NCBI GenBank assembly: GCA_963758495.1
Contig: CAVWVI010000003.1
Location: forward strand, 1,568,001-1,632,000
Source: Oligoflexia bacterium
GTDB taxonomy: Bacteria; Bdellovibrionota; UBA1018
Reading direction: 5' to 3'
DNA length: 64,000 bases
Shown: one piece after another, positions 1,372-20,659 of the stretch
Position numbering within the stretch: position 1 is the first letter of the stretch
Layout of the letters: each line of letters begins with the position of its first letter
Translations under genes and position numbers: made by a program
The notes under the pieces: model-generated
Told to the model about the DNA's origin: nothing
Database searches by the model: none
The model's input: the letters and a program-made list of their open reading frames with translations, nothing else

Positions 1372-1902
1372 TTAATTCTGCGATGCCGACGTTGTAATTT
1401 GTGTACACAACCTTACGCGCTGATCAGCAGTGAATCCAAGCTGCGCAGAGTTGAAAAAACAGCGAAGCGCCTCATCTGTCGTGGAGTCTGCACACAGAAG
1501 GACTCTTTGATCTAGAGTTAGAGACAGATTATTTGTAGAGTCGAAGCATTGGTTCGGATTTGTTGAAGGTGCAGTGCTACAAAGCTTAGCACGTTGGTCA
1601 ATAGTCAATCCTCGACCGTCAGAGTTTTCATAACATCGGAAAGGAGCATCGGAAGTCGCCAATTGGCAGAGACTCAGTTTTTGGGTTGTGGTCATAGTTG
1701 TTCTAGAAGTATAGGCAAAACAACGTGCAGGTGCATCGGATGTTGCACCACTGCAGAGGGTCAGTTTTTCTTTAACAGTGATGCCAGAGCCACTCATGCT
1801 CAAAACACATTCAACAGGGGGACTCACTATGAAGTCTGCAAAGGTAAATGCGCTCAGCATAAAGACATTCAGCAGCATTAAATATCTTAGCCCCATTTTC
1901 AT
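1372..1902 (-). CDS. Secreted cysteine-rich repeat protein (5 x 29-aa repeats)
   Basis: Signal peptide ending AFTFA, five 29-aa repeats, same DQRVRLCTQ ending as 723-1331; GGAG upstream. Confidence 0.8.
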   Translation of the reverse strand: MKMGLRYLMLLNVFMLSAFTFADFIVSPPVECVLSMSGSGITVKEKLTLCSGATSDAPARCFAYTSRTTMTTTQKLSLCQLATSDAPFRCYENSDGRGLTIDQRAKLCSTAPSTNPNQCFDSTNNLSLTLDQRVLLCADSTTDEALRCFFNSAQLGFTADQRVRLCTQITTSASQN

Positions 1903-2023
1903 AGAAGATCTCCAAAGGAATCCAAATATAGCTTCTTGCTCTTAAGCAATATTTATACTTGTCTTCATAGAGCTTGATGGAACTAGGATTAAGCTTAGCT
2001 GATTATGGTAAACGTATATTACT

Positions 2024-4078: not shown

Positions 4079-4261
4079 TTGATTCTAGAAGAGGAATCCG
4101 CAAAATCAAGAAGGAATGTTATTTTTTACGACTTTCAGTTATCTTTAAATAATCCGTTTTTTTGACATGCAATTTGCATATTGTATGATGAAAGTTATAT
4201 GCCTTGCATAGTAATTAATTTATGATTAAATATCTTCTACATTGGGTAGTTTCATCATTTA

Positions 4262-5659
4262 TTACATCCTGAAGCTTGCAGCCAAGGTAGCCCTGGTTTC
4301 GGAAGTGTTTAAATCAGGAGTAAAACTTGGATCGGGTAGTCCCCAGCCATTATTTGCATTAGTGGTCCCACTAGCTCCCGCATAAAAGGGTACAGTTGCA
4401 TGACGATCAGTAACTTCCGCTCGCAAAGTAAGTACTTCATTTGGCATATAATCTAACGTTGCAGTGTAATCCCAGGCTCTAAAATCAGTTCCAGGTGATT
4501 GATAACTTACGTTCGCCGTTGTGGTGGTATTTGATACTGCACTGACGGGTGGTACTAGATAGCGTCCTGGATTTGTTAAAAAACTTCCTCGTAGAGTGAG
4601 TGCAAATAGATTTTTTGCAAACCAAATACGATTAGCAATGGCGGTACCTAATATAAAATTTTTAGAAGAATCAAGTCCCCCCCCGTTCTCAAATCCATAG
4701 TGATTATTGATGCTGCATGCAGCTTTAGAGAAGAGCTGAGACTGAGGTGCATTCCAATATCGGAGTAAAAAACTATCATCATGATGAAAACGTCTTGCAT
4801 CAGGGTTTTGTTGTATATCCGCACCGTAATAGAAATTTGCTACGGTCGAAAAAACTTCAATGGGTCGGTAGACAATCGAAACTCCAAGTGCATTTGATTC
4901 ATTAAATTTTCCATAAGTTTGAAATCCATTAATAACCCAGGGTTCAATTTTAAGGTCTTTACGAGGAAAAATCTGTAGCCGCAGCCCATGAAAATAAAAT
5001 GGAGTAAAGTCACTGACCAATGAACGTTGGTAGCTCCAATTTTCCTGAGTTAAATAACTATCAAGACCCAAATAGGAAGGGAAAATGCCCGCTTCAAGAT
5101 TAATCCCATACATAGAATCCCAATGGTAACCGACTGCAGCTTCTCGAATGTATTTTAGATTATTCACGTTCAGGTTTCGACCACGGTTTACAGTGGGGTC
5201 TGTATCTTGAATAATGCTCAGCGTAGAACCAGTTTGTAAAGCCAAGCGTCCAATTGCATTTTTATAGTTGGCTTCAAATTCAATGCTAGCTAAATTAATT
5301 TGAAATTCATTATCCCGACCTATCGTGGCCGAGCCTGTAATTGTATGATCGATAGGTCGATTCCATGAATAATTGTAATAAGTATCTAAATAGAGGCTTA
5401 CAGTTAGATAATCGTTTTTAAATAAACTAGGGGTGTCTTTTTGTCGATTATTACCATTTAACCAAGAGAAATCAGCGAATGCAAAGGGCTCCTCCTTTTT
5501 TTGTGTTTCAGCTTTGGGCGTTTCAGCAATAGTTGTAGATGGCTGTTTCTCGTCTCCATATGCGAACGTGTGTTCGAGTTGAAAAATACCTGTTAGGCTA
5601 GTTAAATTTAGAATTAAAACAGACCTAAATAATCTTAGGTAATATTTCATGTGTGCCAA
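4262..5659 (-). CDS. Outer-membrane beta-barrel porin (DUF1597/BBP2-like), kdp-associated, paralogue 2
   Basis: EPFAFADFSWLNGNNRQ, FTPFYFHGLRLQ, WVINGFQTYG; clear paralogue of 5700-7070. Confidence 0.75.
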   Translation of the reverse strand: MAHMKYYLRLFRSVLILNLTSLTGIFQLEHTFAYGDEKQPSTTIAETPKAETQKKEEPFAFADFSWLNGNNRQKDTPSLFKNDYLTVSLYLDTYYNYSWNRPIDHTITGSATIGRDNEFQINLASIEFEANYKNAIGRLALQTGSTLSIIQDTDPTVNRGRNLNVNNLKYIREAAVGYHWDSMYGINLEAGIFPSYLGLDSYLTQENWSYQRSLVSDFTPFYFHGLRLQIFPRKDLKIEPWVINGFQTYGKFNESNALGVSIVYRPIEVFSTVANFYYGADIQQNPDARRFHHDDSFLLRYWNAPQSQLFSKAACSINNHYGFENGGGLDSSKNFILGTAIANRIWFAKNLFALTLRGSFLTNPGRYLVPPVSAVSNTTTTANVSYQSPGTDFRAWDYTATLDYMPNEVLTLRAEVTDRHATVPFYAGASGTTNANNGWGLPDPSFTPDLNTSETRATLAASFRM

Positions 5660-5699
5660 AATACTACCTAATGAGATTTAAGAAAACCACTACTTGCAT

Positions 5700-7070
5700 T
5701 TAGAGACGCACCATCATTGCTGCATTGATACGATTCTCTGAAGTTTGTAAATCAGGTTGAAACCCAGGGATTACGCTTCCGGGTGAGTTTTGGTTTCCTC
5801 CGGGCGGAGTCATGCCACCCGCTCCTGCAAAATAAGGTACATTTGCCTGACGGTGGATATACTCAAGACGGAACGTGATAAACTGACTAGGCATATAATC
5901 AAACGTGACTGAGGTATCCCACGCATTAAAAGGGTCACCAGGAGACTCCGTGAAATAAGGTGTGCCGCTGGAAGCAGTGGCTCCATTGATAGGCGGTAAG
6001 AGCACCAGATATCGACCTGGATTTGTAATTGCACCAGTACCTAGTGTTAAACCAAAACGATCCTTATCAAACCAAAACCTATTATAAGCCATGAAGCCCA
6101 AAAAATACTGAGCAGGGCTAGTTGGATCGTTTCCACCACAACTTACGCCTCCGCCATTTTCACATCCAGCGTCAGCGGTGAGCGAGAATGCTCCCTTACT
6201 GAAGAAATTGCTGGGGTTGTCATAATATTTGACCTGAAGGCTATTATCAGTGTGGATTCGCATCCGACTCGCAATGCCCATCGTGTCATGCCCATAGTAC
6301 TCATTAGAGACAATTGAAACAGATCCGTTTGGCCGCCACAAAAGTTGCCAGCCTACTCCGGGCGCTTCGTTAAATGTACCGTAGGACTGCCAACCGTTTA
6401 CGAGCCAAAACTCGGCTTTAAATTTGTCGCTCGGGAATAATTGAAGGCGTACTCCATTAAAAAACCACGGGGTATTAGCAGAGACATAAGACATTTGATA
6501 TACCCAGTTCTCATAATTATAATAACTACAAAGACCTATGTAAGACATAAAGATTCCCACATCGAGATTGATTCCATTCCAGACGTCCCAATGATATCCG
6601 CCGTAAGCCTCAGATACATAACGATAGGCATTAGAAAGATCCCATTGGCCACGCGATGGGCTTGAATCATTCCGAGGGGTCATGGTTGAGTACATTCCAA
6701 ATTGAGTAAAAAGTCTTCCTCGAATATTTTGATAATGGAAGTCTCCGCCAATACCTAATTGCTCAACCTGGAATTCACCTGTACGTCCTGAGTTTGTTGA
6801 ACCACTCAGGGTGTGATCGTTAGGACTTCTGAAGTCGTATACATAGTTGGTGTCCAAAGAAAACTCACCTGTAAATACCTTGCTGTCGAGAGGAAATTCA
6901 GTCTGACGGCTATTTCCGTTTAACCAAGTAAAGTCTCCAAAAGCGAATGGTTCAGTTGCTGCCTTCACTTCTTGTAGAGATGATAGAATGAACGCACAAC
7001 TTAATGTTCCTAGAAAGAGCGTGCGGTGAAAAAATGAATGCATCAACATAACGAAGGCTCCTTTAATCAA
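5700..7070 (-). CDS. Outer-membrane beta-barrel porin (DUF1597/BBP2-like), kdp-associated, paralogue 1
   Basis: EPFAFGDFTWLNGNSRQ, NTPWFFNGVRLQ, WLVNGWQSYG; abuts the kdpC stop (true start may be a downstream ATG). Confidence 0.75.
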   Translation of the reverse strand: MIKGAFVMLMHSFFHRTLFLGTLSCAFILSSLQEVKAATEPFAFGDFTWLNGNSRQTEFPLDSKVFTGEFSLDTNYVYDFRSPNDHTLSGSTNSGRTGEFQVEQLGIGGDFHYQNIRGRLFTQFGMYSTMTPRNDSSPSRGQWDLSNAYRYVSEAYGGYHWDVWNGINLDVGIFMSYIGLCSYYNYENWVYQMSYVSANTPWFFNGVRLQLFPSDKFKAEFWLVNGWQSYGTFNEAPGVGWQLLWRPNGSVSIVSNEYYGHDTMGIASRMRIHTDNSLQVKYYDNPSNFFSKGAFSLTADAGCENGGGVSCGGNDPTSPAQYFLGFMAYNRFWFDKDRFGLTLGTGAITNPGRYLVLLPPINGATASSGTPYFTESPGDPFNAWDTSVTFDYMPSQFITFRLEYIHRQANVPYFAGAGGMTPPGGNQNSPGSVIPGFQPDLQTSENRINAAMMVRL

Positions 7071-7651
7071 AGATGAAGGTTGTCCAGCTCTATATTTAAA
7101 AGTAGGACATTCACTACAGCATTTCCGAAAAGTCCCAATTGTGGCCCTTCTGTATGGTTTTTGACTAGCTTGCGAAGTTCATTAGTCGAAATTCCTCGTG
7201 CTTGAGCTACGCGGTCGACCTGAGCTTCTGCAGCTTCCGGAGAAATATGAGGATCTAACCCACTTCCAGAACTTGTGACAAGATCAACAGGAATTTCTCC
7301 CTTTTTCAAAGTAGGGTTTTCCATTAATACACGATCAATGTTCGATTTTAGTTCATCTGCCAACTTTTGATTAGTTGGACCAAAATTTGAACCCGAAGAG
7401 TTTGAAGCATCATACCCATTTCCAGTTCCTGCTGCGGAAGGTCTGCCGTGAAAATATTCTCGCTTTGTGAAGGCTTGCCCAATGAGTTTGGCTCCAATAA
7501 TTTTTCCAGCGCTATTGGAAATCATGCCTCCATTCGCTTTCTCATGAAAAAAAATGTTTCCTATAATTGTCACGAGTGCTGGATATACCCCACAAAGTAG
7601 AACTGCGAGGGTGAATGTTGCTACAAAAGAGCGATAGATCAATTTAAACAT
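7067..7651 (-). CDS. kdpC: K+-transporting ATPase subunit C
   Basis: LIGQAFT..YFHGRPSAAG, SSGSNFGP, DLVTSSGSGLDPHISP, VNVLLLN. Confidence 0.97.
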   Translation of the reverse strand: MFKLIYRSFVATFTLAVLLCGVYPALVTIIGNIFFHEKANGGMISNSAGKIIGAKLIGQAFTKREYFHGRPSAAGTGNGYDASNSSGSNFGPTNQKLADELKSNIDRVLMENPTLKKGEIPVDLVTSSGSGLDPHISPEAAEAQVDRVAQARGISTNELRKLVKNHTEGPQLGLFGNAVVNVLLLNIELDNLHL

Positions 7652-7661
7652 AATACTCTCC

Positions 7662-9686
7662 TTATGCTAGACCCAGGACAGAAACCAGTACGTCAATAAT
7701 TTTAATACCTATAAAAGGAATGATAATTCCGCCTAACCCGTAAACTAAAATGTTTCTTTGGAGGATTTTAGAAGCTGATTGAGGTCGATATCCAACACCT
7801 CGAAGAGCAAGCGGGATAAGAAAAATAATAATGAGCGCATTAAAGATGACCGCGGAAAGGATTGCACTTTGAGGACTTTTTAAATTCATGATATTGAGGG
7901 AGCCCAAAGCTGGCAGAGTGCTTGCAAAAATGGCAGGGATAATGGCGAAATATTTAGCCACATCATTGGCAATACTAAAGGTAGTTAATGAACCTCGTGT
8001 GATCAAAAGTTGCTTTCCTATTTCTACGATTTCTATCAGTTTCGTAGGGTCAGAATCCAGGTCAATCATATTCCCTGCTTCACGTGCGGCCTGGGTGCCT
8101 GTATTCATAACAAGACCCACATCCGATTGTGCTAATGCTGGGGCATCGTTTGTACCGTCCCCAGACATGGCAACCATTCTTCCCTCTAATTGGTAGCTTT
8201 TAATGAGCTTAAGTTTATCTTCTGGTTTGGCTTCTGAGAGATAATCATCAACTCCAGATTCCTGAGCAATAGCTGCAGCAGTGAGTCGATTGTCTCCTGT
8301 TATCATAACAGTTTTAATGCCCATGGCTCGAATTCGATCAAAGCGATCCCGAATGCCGGGTTTGACAATGTCTTTGAGATGGATCACTCCCATTATTTTC
8401 CCGTTTTTTGCAACGACAAGAGGAGTACCTCCTTGACTTGCAATTCCTTGAACTGCCTTTTCTACAGCTGGGGTAAGCTTTTCTTGAAATCCTTGAGACC
8501 AGCTTTGGATAGCATCCATGGCCCCTTTTCGAATGGAGGTGCCAGGATAGTCTACTCCACTCATTCGAGTTTCTGCAGAGAAAGGTATGACTGTAGCATC
8601 CTTTGGGATCGTGGATTTAATACCCATTTTATTAGCCAAAGTAACAATGGATCTTCCTTCTGGAGTTAAATCGACTGTGGAAGCAATTAACGCAGTTTCT
8701 GCTATTTCGCTGGTACTCACGTTTTCAGCAGGGATAAATGCTGTTGCCATTCGATTTCCAATCGTGATCGTACCCGTCTTATCGAGAAGTAAAACATCAA
8801 CATCGCCGGCAGCTTCAACGGCCCTTCCTGACATTGCCAAAACATTTCTCTGCACAAGGCGATCCATTCCCGCAATTCCTATTGCAGAAAGGAGTCCGCC
8901 AATAGTCGTTGGGATGAGACAAACTAAAAGTGATACTAATATGACTAAGGAAACAGGTGTATTTGCGTAAGTAGCAAAAGGTCTGAGAGTCACAGTGGCC
9001 AAAAGAAAAACAAGAGTGAGCCCCGCTAATAAAATATTCAGAGCAATTTCGTTAGGAGTCTTCTGCCGTACTGCCCCTTCGACTAAAGCGATCATTCGAT
9101 CTAAAAACGATTCACCTGGATTCGTAGTGATTTGAATCACAATTTCATCCGACAGTACGGTAGTCCCTCCAGTGACAGCACTGCGGTCTCCTCCCGCTTC
9201 GCGAATTACCGGCGCAGATTCCCCAGTAATGGCGGATTCATCTATAGAGGCCACTCCTTCGATGACGGTGCCATCAGCCGGAATCACTTGGCCTGCCTCA
9301 ACCACTACGAAATCTTCTTTTCTCAGTGCTGAAGAAGGGACAGATTCTATTACGCCATTTTTCGTACGTCTCTGGGCCATGGTTTCAGTACGAGCTCGTC
9401 TAAGATTATCCGCTTGTGCTTTCCCTCGGCCTTCTGCCATTGCTTCTGCAAAATTGGCGAAAAGTACGGTGAACCATAGCCAAAGGGTAATCTGTCCGCT
9501 AAAAAGTGCTTCGTGTTTTCGACCGGAAACGCAGTCAGAAATGAATGCGATGGTGGTAAGAACACTCCCGACTTCGACCACAAACATGACCGGATTTTTC
9601 ATCAATATTTTTGGGTTTAGTTTTTTGAATGAATCTTTGATTGCAGGCTTAACGAGGGCGGGATTCCAAATTGATGAGTTTATCAT
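7662..9686 (-). CDS. kdpB: K+-transporting P-type ATPase subunit B
   Basis: [35 protein letters not shown]. Confidence 0.98.
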
Positions 9687-9706
9687 AAAACATCTCCATA
9701 TTAAGA

Positions 9707-11416
9707 CTATTTATAAAAATGGCCATGCAGCATGTCAAAATGCTCGGCGATTGGACCTAATGAAAGGGCGGGGAAAAAAGTGAGAGCTCCCACTAAAATG
9801 ATAACGCCAATGAGAAGACACACAAAGAGTGGGCCATCTACTGGGAAGGTCCCCTCGCCTCCGGGATGAATTCTTTTCTTCACCATGGATCCAGCCACTG
9901 CCAGCATAGGAATCATCATGAAAAACCGCCCAAAAAACATTGCGAATGCTAATGTGAGATTCCAAAAGGGAGTGTTTGTAGATAACCCGCCGAATGCACT
10001 TCCATTATTTCCCGTTGCTGAAGTGTAAGCATACAAAATTTCAGAAAATCCATGTCCTGCTGGATTACCCAATCCTGTCAAAGCAGATGAATCAAGAGAA
10101 CCCCAAGCTGTAAAACCTAATATAGAAAGAGCCATCACGATCATGGAAAACATGACATATTTGACTTCTCTTCCTTCAATTTTTTTCCCTAAATATTCTG
10201 GCGTTCTCCCAACCATGAGTCCCGCTATGAAAACAGTGAGAATGACATACATCAGCATTCCATAAAGTCCAGAACCCACGCCCCCAAAAATGACTTCGCT
10301 TAGCATGATATTTATAAGTGGAACCATTCCACCCAAAGGAGTGAAACTATCATGCATGGCATTAACTGCTCCACAGGAAGCGTCTGTTGTGATTGTGGCA
10401 AATAAAGCGGAGTTAAATATTCCAAATCGAGTGTCTTTCCCCTCCATATTAGCGGAATTGGAGCAGCCCATGCTTTTAAAAATTGGATTTCCTTGATATT
10501 CAAAATGAGTACATAAAACTGCACCTGTGACAAAAACAATTGCCATGGCTGCCCAGATAGCCCAACCGTGTCGGATATTTTTTACTGTTTTACCCAACAA
10601 ATAAACAAGCCCGCTCGGTATTAAAAAGATTGAAAGCATTTGAATAAAATTAGAAAGAGGGGTGGGGTTCTCGTAAGGATGAGCTGCATTGGCATTAAAG
10701 AAACCACCTCCATTAGTTCCTAACATTTTTATAGCGACCTGGGAGGCTACTGGCCCTTGTGCAATGGTTTGCTTTAAGCCTTCTAAAGTGGTTACCTCTT
10801 GATAAGGGAGAAAGTTCTGGATCATGCCTTGTGAGATTAAAAAAACAGCAAAAAGGATACAAATCGGAAGTAAGAGGTAAAGATTCGCACGAATCATATC
10901 TGTCCAAAAATTTCCAATCCCTTTTCCCTCTTTTTTAGCAAGTGAGCGAATGAGAGCGACCGCCACTGAGATTCCTACTGAGGCTGAGATAAAGTTCTGA
11001 AAGGCAAGCCCGACCATTTGAGAAAAATAGCTCATGGTACTTTCGCCGCTGTAAGATTGCCAGTTCGTGTTTGTAGTAAAACTCATGGCGGTATTGAAAG
11101 CGAGATGAGGAGCAATTACCCCTTCAGACGCAGGGTTGAGAGGTAAATAGTGTTGAAGTCGTAAAACTGCATAAGTAAAGGCAAGGGTAATGGCACTAAA
11201 AACGATGAGGTGAATTGAATATTGAGTCCAATGTTGATCTTCATTTGGGTCATAACCGATGAGACGGGAGAATAATCGCTCAATAGGACCGAAGACAGGA
11301 GATAAAAAGGTAGCCTGTCCATTGAATACCCGTGCCATGTAGATTCCGAGGGGCTTTGCCGTCAGGAAAAGTATAAAAATAAAAAGTAACAGCTGAAAAC
11401 TGTCTCGCAGAGTCAT
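9707..11416 (-). CDS. kdpA: K+-transporting ATPase subunit A
   Basis: Four pore loops [29 protein letters not shown]. Confidence 0.98.
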
Positions 11417-11428
11417 AACTAACCTCAG

Positions 11429-11518
11429 TTAAAATCTTTCTGGATTGATCAAAGCATAGAGTAAATAAATAAATACAAGGCCCGATACTACTAATAGTCC
11501 GATATCAACAATCGTCAT
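11429..11518 (-). CDS. kdpF: KdpF small subunit (29 aa; below ORF-track cutoff)
   Basis: MTIVDIGLLVVSGLVFIYLLYALINPERF; canonical YLxYALxxPExF end; GAGGA RBS; directly upstream of kdpA. Confidence 0.92.
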   Translation of the reverse strand: MTIVDIGLLVVSGLVFIYLLYALINPERF

Positions 11519-11535
11519 ATTTTCCTCTCACTCAA

Positions 11536-11622
11536 TTATTTCAGCTTCTCACAAGCTTTAATAAATCCAATTCCTGCACCGAAACAGATGAGTAAGAAAC
11601 ATAAATTCATTAGATCAGTCAT
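11536..11622 (-). CDS. Small hydrophobic kdp leader peptide (28 aa)
   Basis: MTDLMNLCFLLICFGAGIGFIKACEKLK; AAGGA upstream; lies between the sigma54 promoter and kdpF. Confidence 0.7.
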   Translation of the reverse strand: MTDLMNLCFLLICFGAGIGFIKACEKLK

Positions 11623-11672
11623 AAGACCCAATCCTTCTCAAATTAAATGCATTATGTTCTAAGTTCCCACAC

Positions 11673-11689
11673 AGCAAAGTCTGGGCCAA
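11673..11689 (-). promoter_or_regulatory. sigma54 (-24/-12) promoter of the kdp operon
   Basis: Minus strand TTGGCCCAGACTTTGCT: GG-N10-GC, 50 nt upstream of the first ORF; adjacent divergent GAFTGA activator. Confidence 0.8.
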
Positions 11690-11936
11690 TTTAACTTAAA
11701 ATATTTGAAATGGAAGTCTATTCGTGATTTTAACTCCATTAAAAAGAAATAAGTGCGGATGGGCATAAAGAAGTATTACAAAATTTAATGTGGCATTCTA
11801 TTATTGTAATAATGATGACCCATTTAGATATTTTAATATTATTTATATATTCATCCACTTTTAGGCGAAATTTTGAAAAAACTCAGGTAAAGTCTGGACT
11901 TGTTTCAAATACTGTTTTTCATTAATCTCGCAGATT

Positions 11937-13067
11937 ATGGTAAATCAATTTGATGAGATTCTCGAGCGCCGAAAAAAGGGCTCTTTAAAGATATACCTCG
12001 GCTATGCCGCAGGTGTGGGTAAAACCTATGCTATGTTACAAGAAGCCCACCGCTTAAAGTCGCGTGGTTTTGACGTGGTGATTGGTTATTTAGAATCCCA
12101 TGATCGTGCTGATACAATCAACCAGATATTCGACTTGGAGGTGGTTCCGCGCCGCTATTTTACTTTCGGAGAACGATCTTGCGAGGAAATGGATATAGTT
12201 GGCGTCATTAAGCGGAAGCCTCAGATTGTGTTAGTCGATGAGCTCGCTCACACAAATGCTCCAGGGTCGAAAAACGAAAAGCGTTACCAAGATATTCTCG
12301 AGTTATTAGATCAGGAAATCAATGTTATTTCGACCATGAACGTCCAGCATTTGGAATCGGTAGCAGATAAGGTGAGTACTGGAACGGGGGCTGTTATTAG
12401 AGAGCGAGTACCTGACCTTATATTACAAAGAGCAGATCAAATTGTTAATGTCGACGTCTCCATTGAAGACTTGAGAGAAAGACTTAGAACTGGAAAAATT
12501 TACAAACAAGATCAAGCAGAGCGCGCACTTTTAAATTTTTTTTCCAATGCAAATCTCTCTATGCTGAGAGAATCGGTACTTAAAGAGGCGGCAGGAGATC
12601 AAAATAGAAGAATTGACGAACAGGCTCTTTTATCTCAGCAGGCTGCAAAACTTTCTCATGAGACTGTAATGGTATGTTTGAGTTCTGATCCAACCAATGC
12701 AGAAGTTCTCATCAGGCGCGGAACTAAAATGGCCGTTCAACTCTCAAGTCGCTGTTTTGTAGTTTATGTTCAAAGAAAAGCAGAACGCCCAACGACTATT
12801 GATGCGGCTCTTCAAAGAAAAATACAGAATAATCTTACTTTGGCAAAACAGCTTGGGGCTGAGGTAGTGACTCTTCAGGGAGATGATATCTCAGACGTAT
12901 TGGTTAATTTTGCGAGTGAAAATAATGTCCGCCATGCAGTATTTGGAAAATCTCGATTGTCGCCAATTAAAGAACGAATAAGAGGATCCGTAATCTTGAA
13001 TTTTACTTATGATGGCGTGGGTGTAGATGTACATATTCTAAGTACTATTGAAGGAAAACTTTCATGA
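11937..13067 (+). CDS. kdpD: Stand-alone KdpD N-terminal domain + Usp domain (no TM or kinase domains)
   Basis: LKIYLGYAAGVGKTYAML, LVDELAHTNAPGSKNEKRYQDI, STMNVQHLES; C-terminal Usp-like LAKQLGAEV..GKS. Confidence 0.9.
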   Translation: MVNQFDEILERRKKGSLKIYLGYAAGVGKTYAMLQEAHRLKSRGFDVVIGYLESHDRADTINQIFDLEVVPRRYFTFGERSCEEMDIVGVIKRKPQIVLVDELAHTNAPGSKNEKRYQDILELLDQEINVISTMNVQHLESVADKVSTGTGAVIRERVPDLILQRADQIVNVDVSIEDLRERLRTGKIYKQDQAERALLNFFSNANLSMLRESVLKEAAGDQNRRIDEQALLSQQAAKLSHETVMVCLSSDPTNAEVLIRRGTKMAVQLSSRCFVVYVQRKAERPTTIDAALQRKIQNNLTLAKQLGAEVVTLQGDDISDVLVNFASENNVRHAVFGKSRLSPIKERIRGSVILNFTYDGVGVDVHILSTIEGKLS

Positions 13068-14830
13068 AACCTATTGAGCCAATCTTTTCTTATCCTCCCC
13101 TGAGAAAAATTGTATTCAAACACTCACTCTTAATTATTGGCCTTTATACATTAGTGGGTGTGGTCATGATGGGAGCAGTCTTCTTGGCTAGCGGAATAAC
13201 ACCTAAGTTGATTCATTTGAATTATGATTCGATTGCAGCGGCAACGCAAATGAATACCGCTTGGGAAGCTCTTAAAAATCCGCAAGATCATAATGAAAAG
13301 CCTCAGATTGCATGGATCAAGGAATTTGATGACGCAATCTCATTTGAAGATCGCAATATTTCTGAACCTGGTGAGCAAAAAATTGCAAAAAATATTCGAA
13401 ATTTATGGATTACAGCTCAAAAGAATATCAATCAAATTGATCCACTCACCTTTAAAGAGATGAGATCCTATTTGAGTGAGTTAATTCACATCAATGAAGT
13501 CGGGATGTTTAATTTAGCGATAGACAGCAATATATTAAGTCATCGTGCCTTTATTGTAAGTACATTGCTTTTTGTCTTTTCAATTTTATTATCCCTCTAT
13601 TTAGCAGATAATCTTGCGATTACTATTACTACTCCAATAAAGGAACTTGCGGAAACACTGAGGCGTAAACCTCTTCCTGGTTCTAAGCTTAAGCTCCCAA
13701 AACCCACAAGTCTGGAAATGCGAATATTCACTCATGAAATGTTACAGCTCTGGGAGCGGGTTTCAGAGCTTCAGAAACTCAATTTGGAAAAGATATTTTC
13801 CCAGGGGAAAAAACTAGAAGCCGTATTATCATCAGTTGATGATGCTATTTTAGTTTTAGATAATCAAGATCAAGTCATTCATTGCAATCAAGGCATGGTT
13901 AAGTTAATTGGCTTGGATTTGAGTGACATCCTGGGTCAATGCTGGCAAGATCTCCCATCATTGAGTGCGAATTACATTCAACTGAGAAATTTGTTAAAAC
14001 CTGATATTATAAGCGATCAAGTCGCTGAGTTTGAGTTAGATCAAAGAATGAGAGTGTTTTCAGGTAGGTGTCGTCCATTCTTTGATGAGCAAGGACGCCA
14101 AATTGGATCCATTTATCTCCTTCATGATATAACGGAAATTCGACAAAAAGATCGACTCAAAGCTGAATTTATTGGGGTCCTTTCTCATGAACTTAAAACT
14201 CCACTTCAATCCTTAGGAACCGCATCTGAAATCCTCTTTGAGCGAAGAAATAAATTGGAAGAGGAGGAGAAAATGCTTCTCGAAACGATACATGAAGATG
14301 TAGGTCGAATCCGTGCAGTAGCAAATGAATTTGTCCAAGTAGGGTTGGTGGATCTTCACTCTTTGAGGCTTAAACTTGAAAAAGTGCCTATGAGCGATTT
14401 TCTTCCTCAATGGATACAGCCTTTTCAAGTTTTGGCAAAAGACAAAAATATAAAAGTACAATTTATCAAGGAAGGCTCTAACGTTATATTAGCTCAGATT
14501 GATACGGTAAAATTTCCCTGGTCAATTTCTAATCTGATTTCAAATGCAATTAGGGTATCACCCTTAGACGGGACAGTCATTGTTCGTTTGTCGGATCGAG
14601 AAAGTAGGGTAGATATTGACGTTATAGATGAAGGTCCTGGAATTTCTGAAGAAAATCAGAAAAAAATATTTGATCCTTATTTTCAAGGGAGCAAGGAATT
14701 GAGTGGTTTCTTAGGGCTGGGGCTAACCATTACTAAGGAGGTTGTTGAGGCACATGAAGGGCGAATTGAATACTATCCGAAACAACCTTACGGCTCTATT
14801 TTTAGAATTTCTCTGCCTTTGCCAGTGTGA
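13064..14830 (+). CDS. Membrane sensor histidine kinase (2 TM, HAMP-like, PAS, HisKA, HATPase)
   Basis: SHELKTPL, NLISNA, DEGPGI, GLGL; ATGA overlap with the kdpD-N gene. Confidence 0.92.
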   Translation: MKPIEPIFSYPPLRKIVFKHSLLIIGLYTLVGVVMMGAVFLASGITPKLIHLNYDSIAAATQMNTAWEALKNPQDHNEKPQIAWIKEFDDAISFEDRNISEPGEQKIAKNIRNLWITAQKNINQIDPLTFKEMRSYLSELIHINEVGMFNLAIDSNILSHRAFIVSTLLFVFSILLSLYLADNLAITITTPIKELAETLRRKPLPGSKLKLPKPTSLEMRIFTHEMLQLWERVSELQKLNLEKIFSQGKKLEAVLSSVDDAILVLDNQDQVIHCNQGMVKLIGLDLSDILGQCWQDLPSLSANYIQLRNLLKPDIISDQVAEFELDQRMRVFSGRCRPFFDEQGRQIGSIYLLHDITEIRQKDRLKAEFIGVLSHELKTPLQSLGTASEILFERRNKLEEEEKMLLETIHEDVGRIRAVANEFVQVGLVDLHSLRLKLEKVPMSDFLPQWIQPFQVLAKDKNIKVQFIKEGSNVILAQIDTVKFPWSISNLISNAIRVSPLDGTVIVRLSDRESRVDIDVIDEGPGISEENQKKIFDPYFQGSKELSGFLGLGLTITKEVVEAHEGRIEYYPKQPYGSIFRISLPLPV

Positions 14831-14859
14831 AGGATTCTAAAAATGGAAGGGATTTAAAT

Positions 14860-16212
14860 ATGGCGACCGATAATTTTCTTAAAGTACTCTTAGTGGACGA
14901 TGATTTAAATATATGCCGGACCCTGAATATTAGTTTGAAATCTTTAGATTGTAGAGTAACCCAGGCCCATTCTGTTACCGAAGCTACAGTCATTCTTAAA
15001 AGTCAAACCTTTGATTTAATCCTGACCGATTTTCGAATGGGAGACTCAACTGGAAGTGATTTAATTAAAGAGGCAAAGAAGTTGGATCCTCAATGCCTTA
15101 TTGCGGTCATGACTGCTTTTGCTTCGATCGATAATGCAATTGAAGTCACTAAAGTCGGTGCATTTGATTACCTTCCAAAGCCGTTTACACAGACTCAGCT
15201 CACTCATTTACTCAAAAAAGTAAAATTAGTTGTTTCATTAAAACAAGAGAATGAAAGATTAAAGAGATCCGAAGGTAATCGTCTTCTTTTTTCAGGTTTT
15301 ACTTCGGTAGCTAATCAAAGACTGGAGGAATTTGTAAACAAAGTAGCTCCTACGGATGCTACAATATTGCTTACAGGTGAGAGTGGAACAGGTAAAACGG
15401 AGCTTGCTCGGCTTCTTCATCAAAGATCTCAACGAAGTTCTAAGCCCTTTATAGTAGTTAATTGTACAAGTCTTGCTGAATCTCTTTTAGAGTCAGAAAT
15501 ATTTGGCCATGTTAAAGGAGCTTTTACAGGAGCTATTCAAGATAAAACGGGAAAATTTGAATTAGCCAATCATGGCACGCTTTTTTTGGATGAAATTGGA
15601 GATTTATCATTAAATTCTCAATCAAAACTTCTTCGTTTTTTACAAGAGAAGGTCATTGAAAGAGTGGGAAGTAATCACAGTATTTGTATTGATACAAGGG
15701 TCGTTGCAGCCACCAATAAAAACCTAATTGAAGCGGTGGAGCGTGGTCAATTTCGAGAGGACCTTTATTATCGGCTTAATATTTTTGAATGCACCTTAGT
15801 GCCCATTCGTCATCGCAGGGAAGATCTTCCTGTCTTAATTCAAAAATTTATTATGGAGTTCAGTAGGTTAGCTCACCTGCCTCAACCTCCTTTTATTTCC
15901 GAAAATGTTATGGAAACTTTATTAAAGTACAGCTGGCCAGGAAATATACGAGAAATCAGAAATGTTATGGAGCGCGTAATACTCCTTTCCGCAGGTAGAG
16001 AAGTTAAAATGAGTGACCTGCCTGATCAGATCGTCATCCCAAGAAAGACGTCATTATTTAAAAGTGAATCTCTCTTACCTCTTGCTGAAATAGAGCGTGC
16101 CCATATCAGCAAAATTTTGGAATTAGAGCCAAATCAAGAAAAAGCAGCCGAAATTTTAGGCATCACTAAAGTCACTCTTTGGAGAAAGCGGAAAGAGTAT
16201 GGGTTGCCTTAA
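14860..16212 (+). CDS. sigma54-dependent NtrC/AtoC-family response regulator
   Basis: Receiver (LLVDDD, LTDFRM), GESGTGKT, ESEIFGHVKGAFTGA, WPGNIRE, Fis-type HTH; ATG 14860 after GGAAGGGA (GTG 14827 alternative). Confidence 0.95.
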   Translation: MATDNFLKVLLVDDDLNICRTLNISLKSLDCRVTQAHSVTEATVILKSQTFDLILTDFRMGDSTGSDLIKEAKKLDPQCLIAVMTAFASIDNAIEVTKVGAFDYLPKPFTQTQLTHLLKKVKLVVSLKQENERLKRSEGNRLLFSGFTSVANQRLEEFVNKVAPTDATILLTGESGTGKTELARLLHQRSQRSSKPFIVVNCTSLAESLLESEIFGHVKGAFTGAIQDKTGKFELANHGTLFLDEIGDLSLNSQSKLLRFLQEKVIERVGSNHSICIDTRVVAATNKNLIEAVERGQFREDLYYRLNIFECTLVPIRHRREDLPVLIQKFIMEFSRLAHLPQPPFISENVMETLLKYSWPGNIREIRNVMERVILLSAGREVKMSDLPDQIVIPRKTSLFKSESLLPLAEIERAHISKILELEPNQEKAAEILGITKVTLWRKRKEYGLP

Positions 16213-16325
16213 TTAGATAAAATAAGTCAATTTTTAAAAAACTTAAGCACTCGATGCTTCTAAGTTAGATAGCTTTTACTATAAAAGTATATAAAATAAA
16301 ATATCATGCTTCAAAGGAGAAATGT

Positions 16326-17948
16326 GTGCATAGAGTCTTTCTATTAAATGAAACAAAGGATTTAGCCTACGACACCCTTATCTCTGAGCTTACGCTTTTA
16401 AATGAGATCGTTCCTATTGTCTCACATAATGCAGAAGATTTAGAAGCATCGATCAAGGAAAATCCGCTTGATCTTCTTTTAATTATTGTCGATCAAGCAC
16501 CTTCAGATGTATTAATCGATATCATTTCATTGAATCGTAATTTAATTTATTTACGTGAAACCCATTTTGTTTCTATTCACAGAAATGCCCTGGCTTCAGG
16601 TGTTCAAAAATCCTTGATGATGGGCTCAAAAAATATCTACTTGGAACCCATTGAAAGAAAAAGGCTCATTCGTGCAATAAGTGACTTAGTGAACGATAAT
16701 CCTACTTTTTTAGATATTCCTCCTGAATTTCATAAAGTTTCTCCAACTCCTTTTAGCGTCGAACTCTTTGGTCGAATTGGAAAAATCTATTCAGAACCGC
16801 TAGGAGATTTACATATTGAAACTGATGTCAACATCCATAATGGTCGAGCCATTGAAGTTCGTTCTCGTATTGCGCAAGACCTCGGGTTAACAGGGTTTCG
16901 ATACGTTATTTCCTCTACTTCTACTGTAGATATCTATTATAATTATAAATACAGTTACCATTTATCCTGGAATAGTGATGCTTCATTGAAAAAAAAACTT
17001 GCTACATGGATTTCTAGGAATAATCCATTTTTTGCATTGCCAAAAACCAAGGTTTTATGGATTACAGATCAATTCATAAAGAATCTGGAAGTAATTTTTG
17101 ACAAATCACTTTTCAGTGTACGTATTAGGGCTCCTGGTCGTCTCACGACTTCTTATTTGGATAGTTTAAATCCACAAATTATATGTGTGGGAGACCTGCC
17201 CGAGGTTACAGTAAATGTACTTTATTTATGGATTTCCGAGAAAGGTATCGAAAATGTGCTGCTCATAAGCACGACGGGTACTTCTCAGTCCAATTGGCAT
17301 TATATTCCGATGGATTCTATTGAAAAGTTTAAAAAGGAATTTGTTGCGCTTGTAAAACCTTTGCTCTTAACTCGAATTTCAAGCTCAATCAAAACTGCGA
17401 AGTATTTTAACAGAAACTCCCATTTTTCGAGGTGTGCCATTGCTTTTAGGCATGGAAAAGTAATTTCGATTTCAACTTCACACATGATCTTGGAAACAAA
17501 TATTGATCTTGGAAAAAATATTGTTTTTCAAGGGCATTGCTCTCTTTTGGAAAATCCAAATGGTATTGGACTTTATTTAAAAACCTTAAGTACTGAGCCA
17601 TTGCCAAATTCTTCACTATTTCATTCAATCTGTGAAATTATTCCGGTCTCTGATCAACCTAATACTGCCATTTCGAAATGGATTCAGTCTTTGTCAAAAC
17701 CAATGAGTGAGACACAAGCCTCAGAGTCTCCATGGCTTAATCCTCGTACGATAAAAAAATCCGTAGAGCTTTTCTTTCTCGAGGCGCAACCCTTCATAAT
17801 TGATATTGGAAAGTTAACGATTGGCGTCATTATTTTTGGTGTTCTAGGTATTTTAGCATATACTTTTATATCACCGCCCAACATTCACAGCAATTCTCCC
17901 GCAGAAATGAATGACGTTTTCAGTGCCATTAGAGGAGTTTTCAAATAG
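16326..17948 (+). CDS. Hypothetical protein; degenerate receiver-like N-terminus, C-terminal TM helix
   Basis: 540-aa ORF with AAGGAG RBS; PLDLLLIIVD...GSKNIYLEPI resembles a receiver fold; hydrophobic segment near the C-terminus. Confidence 0.6.
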   Translation: MHRVFLLNETKDLAYDTLISELTLLNEIVPIVSHNAEDLEASIKENPLDLLLIIVDQAPSDVLIDIISLNRNLIYLRETHFVSIHRNALASGVQKSLMMGSKNIYLEPIERKRLIRAISDLVNDNPTFLDIPPEFHKVSPTPFSVELFGRIGKIYSEPLGDLHIETDVNIHNGRAIEVRSRIAQDLGLTGFRYVISSTSTVDIYYNYKYSYHLSWNSDASLKKKLATWISRNNPFFALPKTKVLWITDQFIKNLEVIFDKSLFSVRIRAPGRLTTSYLDSLNPQIICVGDLPEVTVNVLYLWISEKGIENVLLISTTGTSQSNWHYIPMDSIEKFKKEFVALVKPLLLTRISSSIKTAKYFNRNSHFSRCAIAFRHGKVISISTSHMILETNIDLGKNIVFQGHCSLLENPNGIGLYLKTLSTEPLPNSSLFHSICEIIPVSDQPNTAISKWIQSLSKPMSETQASESPWLNPRTIKKSVELFFLEAQPFIIDIGKLTIGVIIFGVLGILAYTFISPPNIHSNSPAEMNDVFSAIRGVFK

Positions 17949-17959
17949 CGATACGAGCT

Positions 17960-18178
17960 TTAATGATCTCTCATTGCAACTTCACGAAGATCACAGCTCT
18001 CTGTTTCAGAGTCGAAAACGAGTCTGACTTTGCCTTCAACCAAGAGCTGATGTACCTGTTGTATTTTTGTTTCATGTTCGACTTCCTTCTCGCCATAATC
18101 AGTACCGTCACGCGAAACAAATTCATCAATAATAGCACGAAGTGTGTCAGATTTTAGATTTTTCCAAGGGACTTCCAT
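17960..18178 (-). CDS. yheU: YheU/UPF0270 family protein
   Basis: VPWKNLKSDTLRAIIDEFVSRDGTDYGE. Confidence 0.85.
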   Translation of the reverse strand: MEVPWKNLKSDTLRAIIDEFVSRDGTDYGEKEVEHETKIQQVHQLLVEGKVRLVFDSETESCDLREVAMRDH

Positions 18179-18223
18179 AATTAACAATTCCTGTTTTTAG
18201 CTGTATCGGACAAGCATATAGCA

Positions 18224-18239
18224 AGGAATATGTCATGCA
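18224..18239 (+). promoter_or_regulatory. Possible sigma54 promoter for the CBS-domain gene
   Basis: AGGAATATGTCATGCA, GG-N10-GC; predicted start just before the GGAGG RBS. Confidence 0.45.
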
Positions 18240-18268
18240 TGTAAAAGGTAGGAGGAAGCAATTCATTT

Positions 18269-18706
18269 ATGAAACAACTAAAAGAAATTATGACATCTGA
18301 TGTCCAGGTCATGAGACCAGACGCTCGTTTGACTGAAGTGGCCTCTCAGATGAAGAAACTGGATGTGGGAGCAATACCTATTTGTGATGAGGATCGGTTA
18401 GTCGGAATGGTTACCGATCGTGATATTGTCCTTCGTACTTTAGGTGAAAGCCAAGATCCTCGAGTCATGTTTGCCAAGGATGTGATGCATTCTCCTATTG
18501 TCTATTGTTATGAAGATCAAACCATAGAAGAGGCAGCACGGCTTATGGAGGTGAAGCAAATACGTCGGCTTGTGGTTTTGAATCGAGATAAAAGATTGGT
18601 CGGAATAGTTTCTGTAGGAGATTTAGCAGTAAAAACAGGAAGTGAAGAGCTTTCTGGAGAGGTTTTGGAAAAAATATCTCAACCTGCAAGGAAAATAGCG
18701 GCCTAA
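18269..18706 (+). CDS. CBS-domain pair protein (Hrp1/YhcV-like)
   Basis: DVGAIPI..LVGMVTDRDIV, MEVKQIRRLVV..LVGIVSVGDL; GGAGG RBS. Confidence 0.9.
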   Translation: MKQLKEIMTSDVQVMRPDARLTEVASQMKKLDVGAIPICDEDRLVGMVTDRDIVLRTLGESQDPRVMFAKDVMHSPIVYCYEDQTIEEAARLMEVKQIRRLVVLNRDKRLVGIVSVGDLAVKTGSEELSGEVLEKISQPARKIAA

Positions 18707-18738
18707 CTCAGAATCTCGTATCCACATAGTGCTTACCG

Positions 18739-18918
18739 TTAGGGGGTTTCACTGGGCGTGATGAGTTGAGTTAACTTATTGGATTCGATATTTCCGCCAC
18801 TTAACACACAGACGATGTGTTCGTGAGCGGGGTAGAACTTTTTCGTCATTAAGCCAGCGACGCCCACCGCGCCTCCGGGTTCTACCAGCCGCTTTTGATC
18901 ATGATACAAAACGCGTAT
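18739..18918 (-). pseudogene. 3' remnant of a PLP-dependent threonine/serine dehydratase
   Basis: Frame reads IRVLYHDQKRLVEPGGAVGVAGLM...HIVCVLSGGNIESNKL...stop; in-frame TAG a few codons upstream; the N-terminal PLP-binding part is absent. Confidence 0.75.
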
Positions 18919-19057
18919 GGAAGAATTTGAAGAGCAAATTATAAACGCTTTTTGTTTTGAGCCTGACTACTCTGGTTTGGTACTTCAAGCATTTCTCAGA
19001 GCAAATTAATTCTAAATAACACTGGTATTCATGTCGCACCGTTTATAGTGTGTGTGT

Positions 19058-20659
19058 ATGATCAGTACCTCTGGAGTAAGTTTAAGTTACGGAAGTCATA
19101 AGTTATTTGACGATGTGAATATTAAGTTCGTGCCGGGCAACTGTTATGGACTTATCGGTGCGAATGGTGCGGGAAAGTCCACCTTCTTGAAGATTCTTTC
19201 AGGAGAAAACTCCTCTTACCAAGGGACGGTTACGGTTACTCCTGGAGAAAGAATTTCATTTCTCCGCCAAGATCATTTTACTTTCGATGACATTCCAGTA
19301 CTCAAGACAGTCATTCAGGGGCAGCCTCGTCTAAACGAAATTATTGCCGAAAAAGACGCACTTTATGCAAAAGCTAACTTTACGGATGCTGACGGCGTTC
19401 GAGCAGGAGAGCTTGAAGGGGCTTTTGCTGAGTTGCGAGGATGGGAAGCAGAAAGTGATGCTGCCGTGCTTCTTGCCGGCTTAGGAATTGGGACTGCACT
19501 TCATGATAAATTGATGCGTGAATTGCGCGATACAGAGAAACTCAAAGTTCTCCTCGCTCAGGCGCTTTTTGGTCAACCCGACATTCTTCTTCTAGATGAG
19601 CCCACGAATCATTTGGATATACCATCGATTCGCTGGCTTGAGTCGTTTCTACTCGAATATGACAAAACTGTGATCGTTGTTTCCCATGATCGTCACTTCC
19701 TGAATCAGGTATGTACTCATATGGCAGACATCGACTTTGGAAGAATTCAACTTTACACAGGTAATTACGAATTTTGGTATGAATCAAGCCAGCTCGCGCT
19801 TAAACAGATGCAGGAAAAAAATAAGAAAGTTCAAGATAAAGCAGAGGAATTAAAGGCTTTCATCGCTCGATTTAGTGCGAATGCTTCAAAATCACGCCAA
19901 GCTACCTCTAGAAAGAAACAACTCGAGAAGTTGACATTAGAAGATATTAAGCCTTCCTCAAGAAAATATCCGTTTGTTGGATTTAAAGCTGAGCGTGAAG
20001 CGGGGGATCAGTTACTCAGAGTTGAAAATATTTCTAAGTCAATTGATGGTGTAAAAATACTAGATCGTATTAGTTTTACATTAAGAAAAGGTGATAAAAC
20101 AGTATTTATTGGCGATACAGAGCTTGCAGTAACTACTTTTTTTAACATTCTTGAAGGAGAAACCGCTCCAGATAGCGGGACCTTAAATTGGGGGGTGACT
20201 ACGACCCGTTCTTATTTTCCAAAGGACAATGCAAAGTACTTTGAAGGAGCTGACCTCAATTTAATCGATTGGCTCCGTCAATATTCCTCTGATCAAAATG
20301 AAAATTTTGTACGGGGATTTCTGGGACGTATGCTTTTCTCAGGCGATGAGGCGACGAAAAAAACCAAGGTGCTTTCAGGAGGTGAGCGAGTGAGATGCAT
20401 GCTTGCTCGAATGATGTTAAGTGGTTCAAATGTGCTCATCCTGGATGGCCCCACCAATCACTTAGATCTTGAGTCGATTACCTCTGTCAATAATGGTCTC
20501 ATTCGATTTACAGGTACAGTCCTTTTTTCTTCCCATGATCAACAATTTATTCAAACTGTCGCAAATCGAGTTATTGAGGTCGGTTCAAGTGGCGTGGTAG
20601 ATCAAGAAAAGTCATATGAGGAATATCTAGCAGAAAAACTAAGTTCTTCTAAATCCTAA
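19058..20659 (+). CDS. ABC-F family ATPase (YbiT-like)
   Basis: GLIGANGAGKST, LLLDEPTNHLD, VSHDRHFLN, LSGGE; two ABC domains, no TM. Confidence 0.92.
   Translation: MISTSGVSLSYGSHKLFDDVNIKFVPGNCYGLIGANGAGKSTFLKILSGENSSYQGTVTVTPGERISFLRQDHFTFDDIPVLKTVIQGQPRLNEIIAEKDALYAKANFTDADGVRAGELEGAFAELRGWEAESDAAVLLAGLGIGTALHDKLMRELRDTEKLKVLLAQALFGQPDILLLDEPTNHLDIPSIRWLESFLLEYDKTVIVVSHDRHFLNQVCTHMADIDFGRIQLYTGNYEFWYESSQLALKQMQEKNKKVQDKAEELKAFIARFSANASKSRQATSRKKQLEKLTLEDIKPSSRKYPFVGFKAEREAGDQLLRVENISKSIDGVKILDRISFTLRKGDKTVFIGDTELAVTTFFNILEGETAPDSGTLNWGVTTTRSYFPKDNAKYFEGADLNLIDWLRQYSSDQNENFVRGFLGRMLFSGDEATKKTKVLSGGERVRCMLARMMLSGSNVLILDGPTNHLDLESITSVNNGLIRFTGTVLFSSHDQQFIQTVANRVIEVGSSGVVDQEKSYEEYLAEKLSSSKS

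Follow-up and report, generated by a model that had tools for sequence, protein, structure and literature searches.

A kdp potassium-pump locus with a putative sigma-54 promoter, a short KdpD and a separate membrane kinase in a member of the Bdellovibrionota

Genes and signals of the locus

We analysed a window of 64,000 nucleotides from an Oligoflexia bacterium (contig CAVWVI010000003.1, positions 1,568,001 to 1,632,000), in which kdpFABC and two porin genes lie divergent from a coupled triad encoding a short KdpD (KdpD-N + Usp), a membrane histidine kinase and a sigma-54 response regulator (Table 1). The first-pass annotation had described the triad in these terms, as a soluble KdpD-N + Usp protein, a PAS kinase with its own sensor and a regulator with an intact GAFTGA motif, and the domains, the motifs and the ATGA overlap of the KdpD-N and kinase frames agree with it. 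The kdpFABC operon is intact, with Pfam or TIGRFAM matches, or both, to all four genes. The first BBP2 gene is probably co-transcribed with the pump genes, and BBP2 genes are found beside kdp again in relatives of both the short-KdpD and the canonical type. By motif position, Ser157 of KdpB is the equivalent of the inhibitory site S162 of E. coli; the TGES motif that carries it is present in 33 of 33 KdpBs compared and is general to P-type ATPases, hence non-discriminating.

Table 1 Features of the kdp locus, in window coordinates
Feature	Position	Strand	Characteristics
BBP2 outer-membrane beta-barrel gene 2	4262..5659	-	PF07642; 43% identical to gene 1
BBP2 outer-membrane beta-barrel gene 1	5700..7070	-	PF07642; overlaps kdpC stop
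kdpC	7067..7651	-	194 aa; PF02669, TIGR00681
kdpB	7662..9686	-	674 aa; TIGR01497; TGES 154-157
kdpA	9707..11416	-	569 aa; PF03814, TIGR00680
kdpF	11429..11518	-	29 aa; PF09604 and TIGR02115, both above cut-off
Putative sigma-54 -24/-12 box TTGGCCCAGACTTTGCT	11673..11689	-	GG 11687-11686, GC 11675-11674; kept in relatives
Enhancer-like palindrome ATTACAAAATTTAAT	11775..11789	.	~100 bp upstream of the box; PWM score 11.9
Weak second site	11796..11810	.	One good half, TTGTAAT; 21 bp from the first; score -1.1
KdpD-N + Usp, soluble	11937..13067	+	376 aa; PF02702, weak Usp, NF038185 below cut-off
Membrane histidine kinase	13064..14830	+	TM1, four-helix sensor, TM2, helical linker, PAS, HisKA (H375), HATPase
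Sigma-54 response regulator	14860..16212	+	Receiver D68, AAA+ with GAFTGA, Fis-type HTH

The host genome, which is 92% complete, carries rpoN and a single KdpD domain. It has no KdpE orthologue, the best match to the KdpEs of relatives being 33-36% identical, while eight of the nine KdpEs compared among relatives share 59-68% identity (one outlier, 39%). No canonical kdpDE pair that might control the operon from elsewhere, which would have told against the first-pass annotation, was found in this genome. KdpD/KdpE is the majority form within the phylum. A diadenylate cyclase was found in the host and in four of the five relatives tested.

The regulator is composed of receiver, Sigma54_activat and HTH_8 domains, with D68, Walker A (184-191), GAFTGA (231-236), Walker B and the R-finger intact, and is 50% identical to its counterpart in a Desulfovibrio-like locus (G659). 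Its longest open reading frame begins at GTG 14827; ATG 14860 is the more likely start, because an RBS-like GGAAGGGA lies upstream and the orthologues measure 448-455 aa.

A promoter conserved together with the regulator

The GG-N10-GC element noticed upstream of kdpF at first pass was recovered on the minus strand, and the box TTGGCCCAGACTTTGCT differs by one mismatch from the sigma-54 consensus TGGCACR-N4-TTGCW. Its position predicts a +1 at about 11662, 144 nt ahead of kdpF. A looser sigma-54 pattern occurs six times in the window, where 0.98 occurrences were expected; taken alone, the box would be modest evidence. The upstream palindrome is identical at 13 of 15 positions to the published D. 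vulgaris Miyazaki DvMF_2572 site, and its PWM score was equalled in none of 200 shuffles. The second site was assigned by spacing alone, which is that of the two Desulfovibrio sites. In a genome-wide scan with the window site's own score as threshold, the combination of box and site was unique to the kdp promoter (0.17 expected). Just one IHF match, with two mismatches, was seen near 11710 and was left out of the evidence.

Box and site are present upstream of kdpA in 10 of 12 short-KdpD loci (each 0/200 shuffles) versus none of nine canonical kdpDE loci and none of four upstream-of-porin regions, all of these relatives being non-independent samples; a survey for co-occurrence of triad and promoter had been suggested at first pass. 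The two short-KdpD loci that lack the combination, G038 and G381, belong to the only two of 14 kinase-bearing genomes from which the regulator orthologue is missing. Sigma-54 output through the triad regulator, as claimed at first pass, is thus well supported, because the box is conserved, an enhancer-like site accompanies it, box and site are lost together with the regulator and Desulfovibrio provides a precedent. A metagenome profile scan yielded one full pump-plus-triad locus among 80 kept.

That the box arose by chance, kdpFABC being read constitutively or from a sigma-70 promoter and the regulator acting elsewhere, could be argued from the 38 boxes with at most one mismatch in the genome and from the AT-richness of the kdp intergenic DNA (30% GC). 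We hold this to be highly improbable: no sigma-70-like site reading towards kdpF was found, neither ydaO nor any other riboswitch was matched by Rfam in positions 1-20000 of the window, and the conservation and co-loss described above speak against it. Towards the triad, three sigma-70-like sites were observed against 3.1 expected, one overlapping the enhancer pair; autoregulation of the triad would be a guess.

Roles of the membrane kinase and the short KdpD

The two transmembrane segments of the kinase (16-50 and 157-189) bracket a periplasmic four-helix sensor with the motifs NYDS, N-[TS]-EPGE and NE-GMF. The protein is 32-36% identical to Nitratidesulfovibrio kinases, with which it has the NYDS sensor and the H-box in common; one of these, WMW64913.1, is the accession next to WMW64914.1, the N. 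liaohensis KdpD-N to which the window protein is 63% identical. In a quick tree, the short KdpD groups with Nitratidesulfovibrio (17-row branch, SH-aLRT 100), apart from full-length KdpDs of the same family. The term "split KdpD" used at first pass is loose, because Pfam found neither DUF4118 nor GAF in the kinase, which is therefore not the C-terminal half of KdpD.

The sensor alone gave no Foldseek match at E<=0.001, and a wide fold search returned generic four-helix bundles (NarQ, Z 12.0; NarX, Z 11.4). Searches with the whole kinase retrieved generic kinase cores and nothing else, as a scan of the genome contigs with this single query retrieved generic kinases only. Among 20 sensor regions scanned with Pfam, 4HB_MCP_1 was detected in three, the window protein not being one of these. 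The kinases of relatives carry the label KinB in the JGI automatic annotation; the KinB sensor was not among the matches listed by the Pfam or fold searches. The four-helix domain is a candidate new K+ receptor.

A signal other than K+, such as envelope or osmotic stress or another ion, might instead reach the kdp regulator through this domain, which has no characterised close relative and generic fold matches. Not every copy of the module is K+-specific: in two genomes (G251 and G311), a related pair with a different sensor sequence precedes a box and site that point to a VIT1-family gene. In D. vulgaris, moreover, the kdp promoter is bound by two further regulators, and the correlation of expression with DVU3334 is poor (PMC3333781). 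Such a signal is nevertheless very unlikely for the window locus, since the kinase lies beside a short kdpD in 11 of the 14 kinase-bearing genomes and beside kup in one more, and no other obvious K+ sensor for kdp was found in the host genome. In the kup case (G067) the pair is divergent from the Kup K+ permease, with the site present and no sigma-54 box (<=2 mismatches) between site and kup.

No transmembrane segment was predicted along the 376 residues of KdpD-N + Usp. A short KdpD inhibits KdpB as an atypical serine kinase (PMC11018627), and the window protein retains all the residues concerned: G28 K29 T30 Y31, D101 E102 and R182, where G28 K29 T30, D101 E102 and R182 correspond to the published G36 K37 T38, D109 E110 and R190. 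They are kept by 113-114 of 114 short KdpDs, and KdpD-N is predicted to be an atypical serine kinase. Only part of the c-di-AMP motif SXS-X20-FTAXY is retained in the Usp domain: S249 and Y277 are invariant, and the other positions differ.

We consider it probable, on these sequence features, that kdpFABC is switched on via sigma-54 by the neighbouring kinase and regulator, and that the short KdpD is mainly a pump-inhibiting serine kinase. Founded on the observed genes, motifs and promoter elements and on the conservation and co-loss of these elements, the mechanism would run as follows. The periplasmic four-helix domain would sense low K+ or a proxy, and phosphate would pass from H375 to D68, the motifs being intact. 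By orthology with DVU3334, the regulator would then bind 11775-11789 and open the sigma-54 polymerase at 11673-11689, so that kdpFABC and the two porin genes are transcribed. At high K+, Ser157 of KdpB would be phosphorylated by KdpD-N, as in PMC11018627; KdpD-N may be controlled by c-di-AMP or docked on the linker-PAS stalk of the kinase.

A purely pump-directed KdpD-N leaves its tight linkage to the kinase unexplained. Within its clade, kdpD-N immediately precedes the kinase gene at 15 of 16 loci, and in the window, G085, G100 and G195 the two genes have moved from the pump as a pair. This linkage, the reading of DVU3335/3336 as one split kinase by Rajeev 2011 (PMC3333781) and the modulation of the E. 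coli KdpD kinase by its N-terminal domain and Usp are what the three-component sensor proposed at first pass would account for, in which KdpD-N/Usp binds the cytoplasmic part of the kinase and sets its kinase/phosphatase balance, transcription needing all three proteins. We regard it as unlikely. Three of the 14 kinase-bearing genomes, among them the one with the Kup permease beside the pair, have kinase and regulator without any KdpD domain or kdpA, the kinase has a conserved periplasmic sensor of its own, and KdpD-N stays intact at loci that have lost regulator and promoter. A C-terminally extended KdpD-Usp follows kdpC in four Desulfobacterota loci, separate from the kinase and regulator upstream of kdpA; the extension is an EIIA domain in the three scanned. 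A membrane anchor on kinase-uncoupled KdpD forms was considered and rejected, the ~560-aa forms having no transmembrane segment and carrying a PTS EIIA domain. With the serine-kinase residues kept, phosphorylation of KdpB appears the better-supported job of KdpD-N than modulation of the kinase, so that the role proposed for it at first pass is partly supported.

KdpD-N adjoins the kinase even in the two genomes without regulator, promoter and phospho-histidine; because the adjacency outlasts all three, it hints at a non-catalytic partnership. A physical link is plausible, given the gene linkage and the fact that KdpD-N in G038 and G381 is accompanied by kinase remnants lacking the sensor or the His. 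We entertain, tentatively, that kinase and short KdpD are a non-covalent counterpart of the tandem serine/histidine kinase of E. coli with an unrelated four-helix periplasmic K+ sensor, a single receptor driving sigma-54 transcription (His-Asp) and holding and controlling the pump-braking serine kinase through the TM-linker-PAS stalk. Since the kinase would then also control the pump brake, both these remnants and the sensor-less forms that recur among database proteins (P0052, P0305, P0321, P0327 and P0339) would be accounted for, and the natural variants offer ready-made tests of kinase control over the brake. Our literature search, largely outside subscription journals, found no paper on a non-catalytic kinase partner of a short KdpD or on a sigma-54 Kdp system in Bdellovibrionota.

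Comparison with known Kdp systems

The closest system is DVU3339.1-DVU3334 of D. vulgaris Hildenborough, whose sigma-54 Kdp wiring was published in 2011 and 2015, with DVU3336 as KdpD sensor + Usp, DVU3335 as a separate kinase, DVU3334 binding its own kdp operon and a sigma-54 promoter at kdpF (PMC3333781, PMC4641369). The novelty implied at first pass is thereby removed, and the surprise is limited. The two systems share kdpFABC, a stand-alone KdpD sensor + Usp, a separate sensory-box kinase, a GAFTGA sigma-54 regulator, a -24/-12 box before kdpF and palindromic sites of the TTAC-A4/T4-GTAA type 21 bp apart, the proteins having been compared through stand-ins (N. liaohensis and G659) for the DVU proteins. 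They differ in host (Bdellovibrionota versus Desulfovibrio), in the placement of the triad (transcribed away from the pump here, after kdpC in D. vulgaris), in the two BBP2 porin genes after kdpC of the window, and in the distance from site to box (~100 bp versus ~70-90 bp), the second site of the window being weak. The kdp operator motif is conserved across phyla.

The short KdpD of Deinococcus geothermalis (Silberberg 2024, PMC11018627) likewise consists of KdpD + Usp only, with Walker A/B and the adenine-binding Arg, and is accompanied, as in the window genome, by the KdpB serine and a diadenylate cyclase. Its Trp39 is Tyr or Phe in the window type, where the c-di-AMP motif is partly kept, and its gene is downstream of the pump rather than upstream of a kinase. 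The word "sigma" is absent from the text of PMC11018627, and the present locus suggests an answer to the question left open there, how kdp is transcribed in short-KdpD species without KdpE. The split Kdp systems of Deinococcus radiodurans and cyanobacteria also combine a truncated kdpD-N with a separately encoded kinase and regulator, and the regulators of D. radiodurans point away from the pump as those of the window do; their kinase, however, corresponds to KdpD's C-terminal half, and their kdpD-N has remained within the pump operon (PMC5716572), whereas the window has an unrelated four-helix/PAS kinase and a sigma-54 enhancer-binding regulator. Compared with E. coli KdpD/KdpE, the pump and the N-terminal KdpD domain are the same, but KdpD has no TM, GAF or kinase half and there is no OmpR-type KdpE. 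Pseudomonas KinB/AlgB pairs a PAS kinase with an NtrC-type regulator, as the window pair does, with different targets. The window locus is thus a further example of a known, little-studied sigma-54 Kdp design.

The kdp locus and its sigma-54 promoter

The regulatory triad described in the first-pass annotation is present, divergent from kdpFABC: a short KdpD (KdpD-N, the soluble N-terminal part plus Usp), a membrane PAS histidine kinase and a sigma-54 regulator. Motif inspection confirmed the intact GAFTGA of the regulator and found its receiver D68, Walker A and B and R-finger, as well as the phospho-histidine H375 of the kinase, all intact. As for a canonical kdpDE elsewhere in the 3.66-Mb source genome (92% complete), only one KdpD domain is present and the OmpR-type proteins match the KdpE of relatives at 36% at best; rpoN and a diadenylate cyclase are present.

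Positions of the features in the window and, where prefixed, in source contig C3 (G000) or in fetched loci (L; relatives' genomes in brackets)
Feature	Position	Strand	Remark
kdpF	11518-11429	-	then kdpA, kdpB, kdpC, two BBP2 porin genes, same strand
Sigma-54 (-24/-12) box	11689-11673		TTGGCCCAGACTTTGCT, upstream of kdpF
Enhancer-like site	11775-11789		ATTACAAAATTTAAT, matrix match, 13/15 to Miyazaki site
Second, weak enhancer-like site			matrix match, 21 bp from the site at 11775-11789
KdpD+Usp protein		+	first of triad, 376 aa, no TM
Kinase		+	588 aa
Sigma-54 regulator		+	probable start ATG 14860
Orphan second kdpA	1-707; G000:C3:1567013-1568704; L104:9014-10708	+	
Cys-rich repeat proteins	723-1331; 1372-1902	+; -	
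Na+/H+ exchanger family gene	L104:6215-8620		just outside the window
Further TGGC-N7-TTGCW matches	25554-25569; 41155-41170; 47977-47992; 59459-59474		
Degenerate short kdpD	L093:9012-10085 (G011)		
His-less kinases	L084:7037-8470 (G038); L196:7639-9210 (G381)		
Long KdpD-Usp proteins	L197:7977; L198:8189; L199:9293; L200:8161		
683-aa KdpD locus	L202:5266-9899 (G527)		
Kinase-regulator pair by kup	L208:8234-13421 (G067)		
Related kinase plus regulator	L209:8898-13549 (G251); L210:6316-10917 (G311)		

The GG-N10-GC box claimed upstream of kdpF is present, together with an enhancer-like site and its weak partner. A matrix with four published sites, and no others, as input gave 112 sites scoring at least 11.9 genome-wide, alongside 38 boxes with at most one mismatch; at a threshold set to the kdp site's own score, the kdp promoter is the only box-site pair in the genome spaced 50-200 bp apart (0.17 expected). 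The proposed co-occurrence of triad and box was borne out among relatives: box and site stand upstream of kdpA in 10 of 12 short-KdpD loci (600 nt examined; 0/200 dinucleotide shuffles each), the weakest site scoring 5.7 (G063), and are absent from all nine canonical kdpA upstream regions (full-length KdpD, OmpR-type KdpE) and from four of four regions upstream of porins. Two of these controls carry three-mismatch boxes, but with negative site scores. G017 and G090 (contig ends), G011 (kdpA not found) and G071 (contig begins within kdpA) were left out. Of the 401 genomes searched, 14 carry the kinase, and all but two of these have a regulator orthologue; the two without one are G038 (95% complete) and G381 (91%), whose loci are the two devoid of the elements. 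The sigma-54 wiring of kdp is real and well-supported. In the window, TGGC-N7-TTGCW has six matches against 0.98 expected, an excess that suggests several sigma-54 promoters.

The orphan kdpA lies 9 kb from the pump, and kdpF, kdpB, kdpC and a sigma-54 box are absent there. Its 564-aa product shares 62% identity with the operon copy, has NTNTSWQ as first selectivity-filter motif versus [TM]TNTNWQ in five other aligned KdpAs, and may be a subunit variant whose affinity differs. It is followed directly by a convergent pair of genes for probably secreted Cys-rich repeat proteins, neither with a Pfam match; the exchanger gene, whose product ends in a cyclic-nucleotide-binding domain, is divergent from it.

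Roles of the short KdpD and the kinase

Silberberg 2024 (PMC11018627) showed that KdpD acts through its N-terminal domain as a serine kinase, inhibiting KdpB at S162; a KdpD/Usp-only protein was shown to act likewise under c-di-AMP control. Every residue named there has a counterpart in the window KdpD-N, always offset by 8, and 113-114 of 114 short KdpDs keep them, Tyr or Phe standing in for Trp39; the S. aureus c-di-AMP motif (PMC4686210) is kept only in part. Most likely, kinase and regulator serve transcription and the short KdpD serves as pump brake.

The kinase sensor is modelled as TM1, a four-helix bundle and TM2 (pLDDT 92, 20 sequences), and resembles NarQ/NarX-type sensors only at the level usual for helical bundles. 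N53, Y54, D55 and S56 (the NYDS motif), F88, N98, W115 and N144 are invariant in 113 relatives and are candidates for a ligand site; we infer that the sensor may bind K+.

The kinase directly follows KdpD-N in 15 of the 16 loci of the branch, including those where both have left the pump operon; the exception is G011, where KdpD-N is degenerate (Walker A and B altered) and kdpA was not found in the genome. In G038 and G381, which have neither regulator orthologue nor promoter elements, a His-less kinase directly follows an intact short kdpD. The G038 kinase has lost its entire periplasmic sensor in frame and its His (to Gln), keeps 15/16 conserved residues of the PAS and 24/26 of the ATPase part, and is 50-55% identical to its sisters versus 56-69% among them; that of G381 (His to Ser) has eroded sensor motifs and ends with the contig. 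Of five further sensor-less kinases, two have the His replaced, two keep it and one is cut before the H-box; as a hint only, P0052 may share a genome with short KdpD P0144, and P0321 with P0183. The gene linkage and the kinase remnants speak for a physical link between the KdpD-N and kinase arms, the more novel possibility and one that we consider rather unlikely; more simply, the remnants could be a co-transcribed gene decaying slowly.

A requirement of KdpD-N for transcription through kinase and regulator is counted against by three genomes that have the pair with no KdpD domain or kdpA, and by four Desulfobacterota loci with kdpD apart from the kinase. In G067, the orthologous pair, with no kdp, is divergent from a kup permease gene, and a phosphate cluster led by pstS lies downstream of the pair; position 11403 of L208 carries one enhancer-like site, and no clear sigma-54 box was found by kup. 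In G251 and G311, a related kinase of different sensor sequence and the regulator come first, then an enhancer-like site with a sigma-54 box, and after these a small membrane ORF and a gene of the VIT1 family, an order in which the regulator's DNA-binding specificity appears reused for another target.

Distribution and the Desulfovibrio precedent

KdpD domains occur in 90 of 401 genomes of the host phylum (short form in 12) and in 52 of 301 sampled Desulfobacterota; the kinase's named relatives fall in Bdellovibrionia, Oligoflexia and Bacteriovoracia, which makes the host Bdellovibrionota-like. Fifteen loci of the 52, picked for short or intermediate KdpD length, were fetched, and 11 carry a GAFTGA-type regulator in the stretch. 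A box stands upstream of kdpA in 6 of the 10 tested (kdpA and regulator in view; G659 also counts in the short-KdpD promoter set); within the 750 nt examined, none was found in G470 or in four loci with kinase and regulator upstream of kdpA. At L197-L200, where a kinase (H-box SHQL) and a sigma-54 regulator precede kdpA, KdpD-Usp proteins of ~560 aa follow kdpC and end in a PTS EIIA domain (by Pfam in the three scanned of the four). G527 is a hybrid of the canonical and sigma-54 wirings: a KdpD with TM and GAF present and the kinase domain absent, then a kinase of the NYDS type and a regulator of 231 aa that lacks the sigma-54 domain.

Desulfovibrio vulgaris is now placed in the genus Nitratidesulfovibrio. 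The window KdpD-N is 63% identical to WMW64914.1 of N. liaohensis, and the kinase 32-36% to WMW64913.1. A quick tree built from the N-terminal parts of 42 KdpDs groups the window protein with Nitratidesulfovibrio in a short-form branch of 17 rows (SH-aLRT 100), separate from the ten full-length KdpDs of its own class. The "split KdpD" of the first-pass annotation is therefore a shared alternative module rather than a fresh split. In the D. vulgaris Hildenborough triad (DVU3334-3336), DAP-chip mapped DVU3334 to its own kdp operon, and the kinase was viewed as split into DVU3336 (K+ sensor plus Usp) and DVU3335, according to Rajeev 2011 (PMC3333781), in which EMSA confirmed 15 motifs, the kdp motif possibly among them; Kazakov 2015 (PMC4641369) gives a sigma-54 promoter at kdpF and 15-bp sites in pairs, 21 bp apart. 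The sigma-54 kdp wiring is thus already described in Desulfovibrio, and so is not new.
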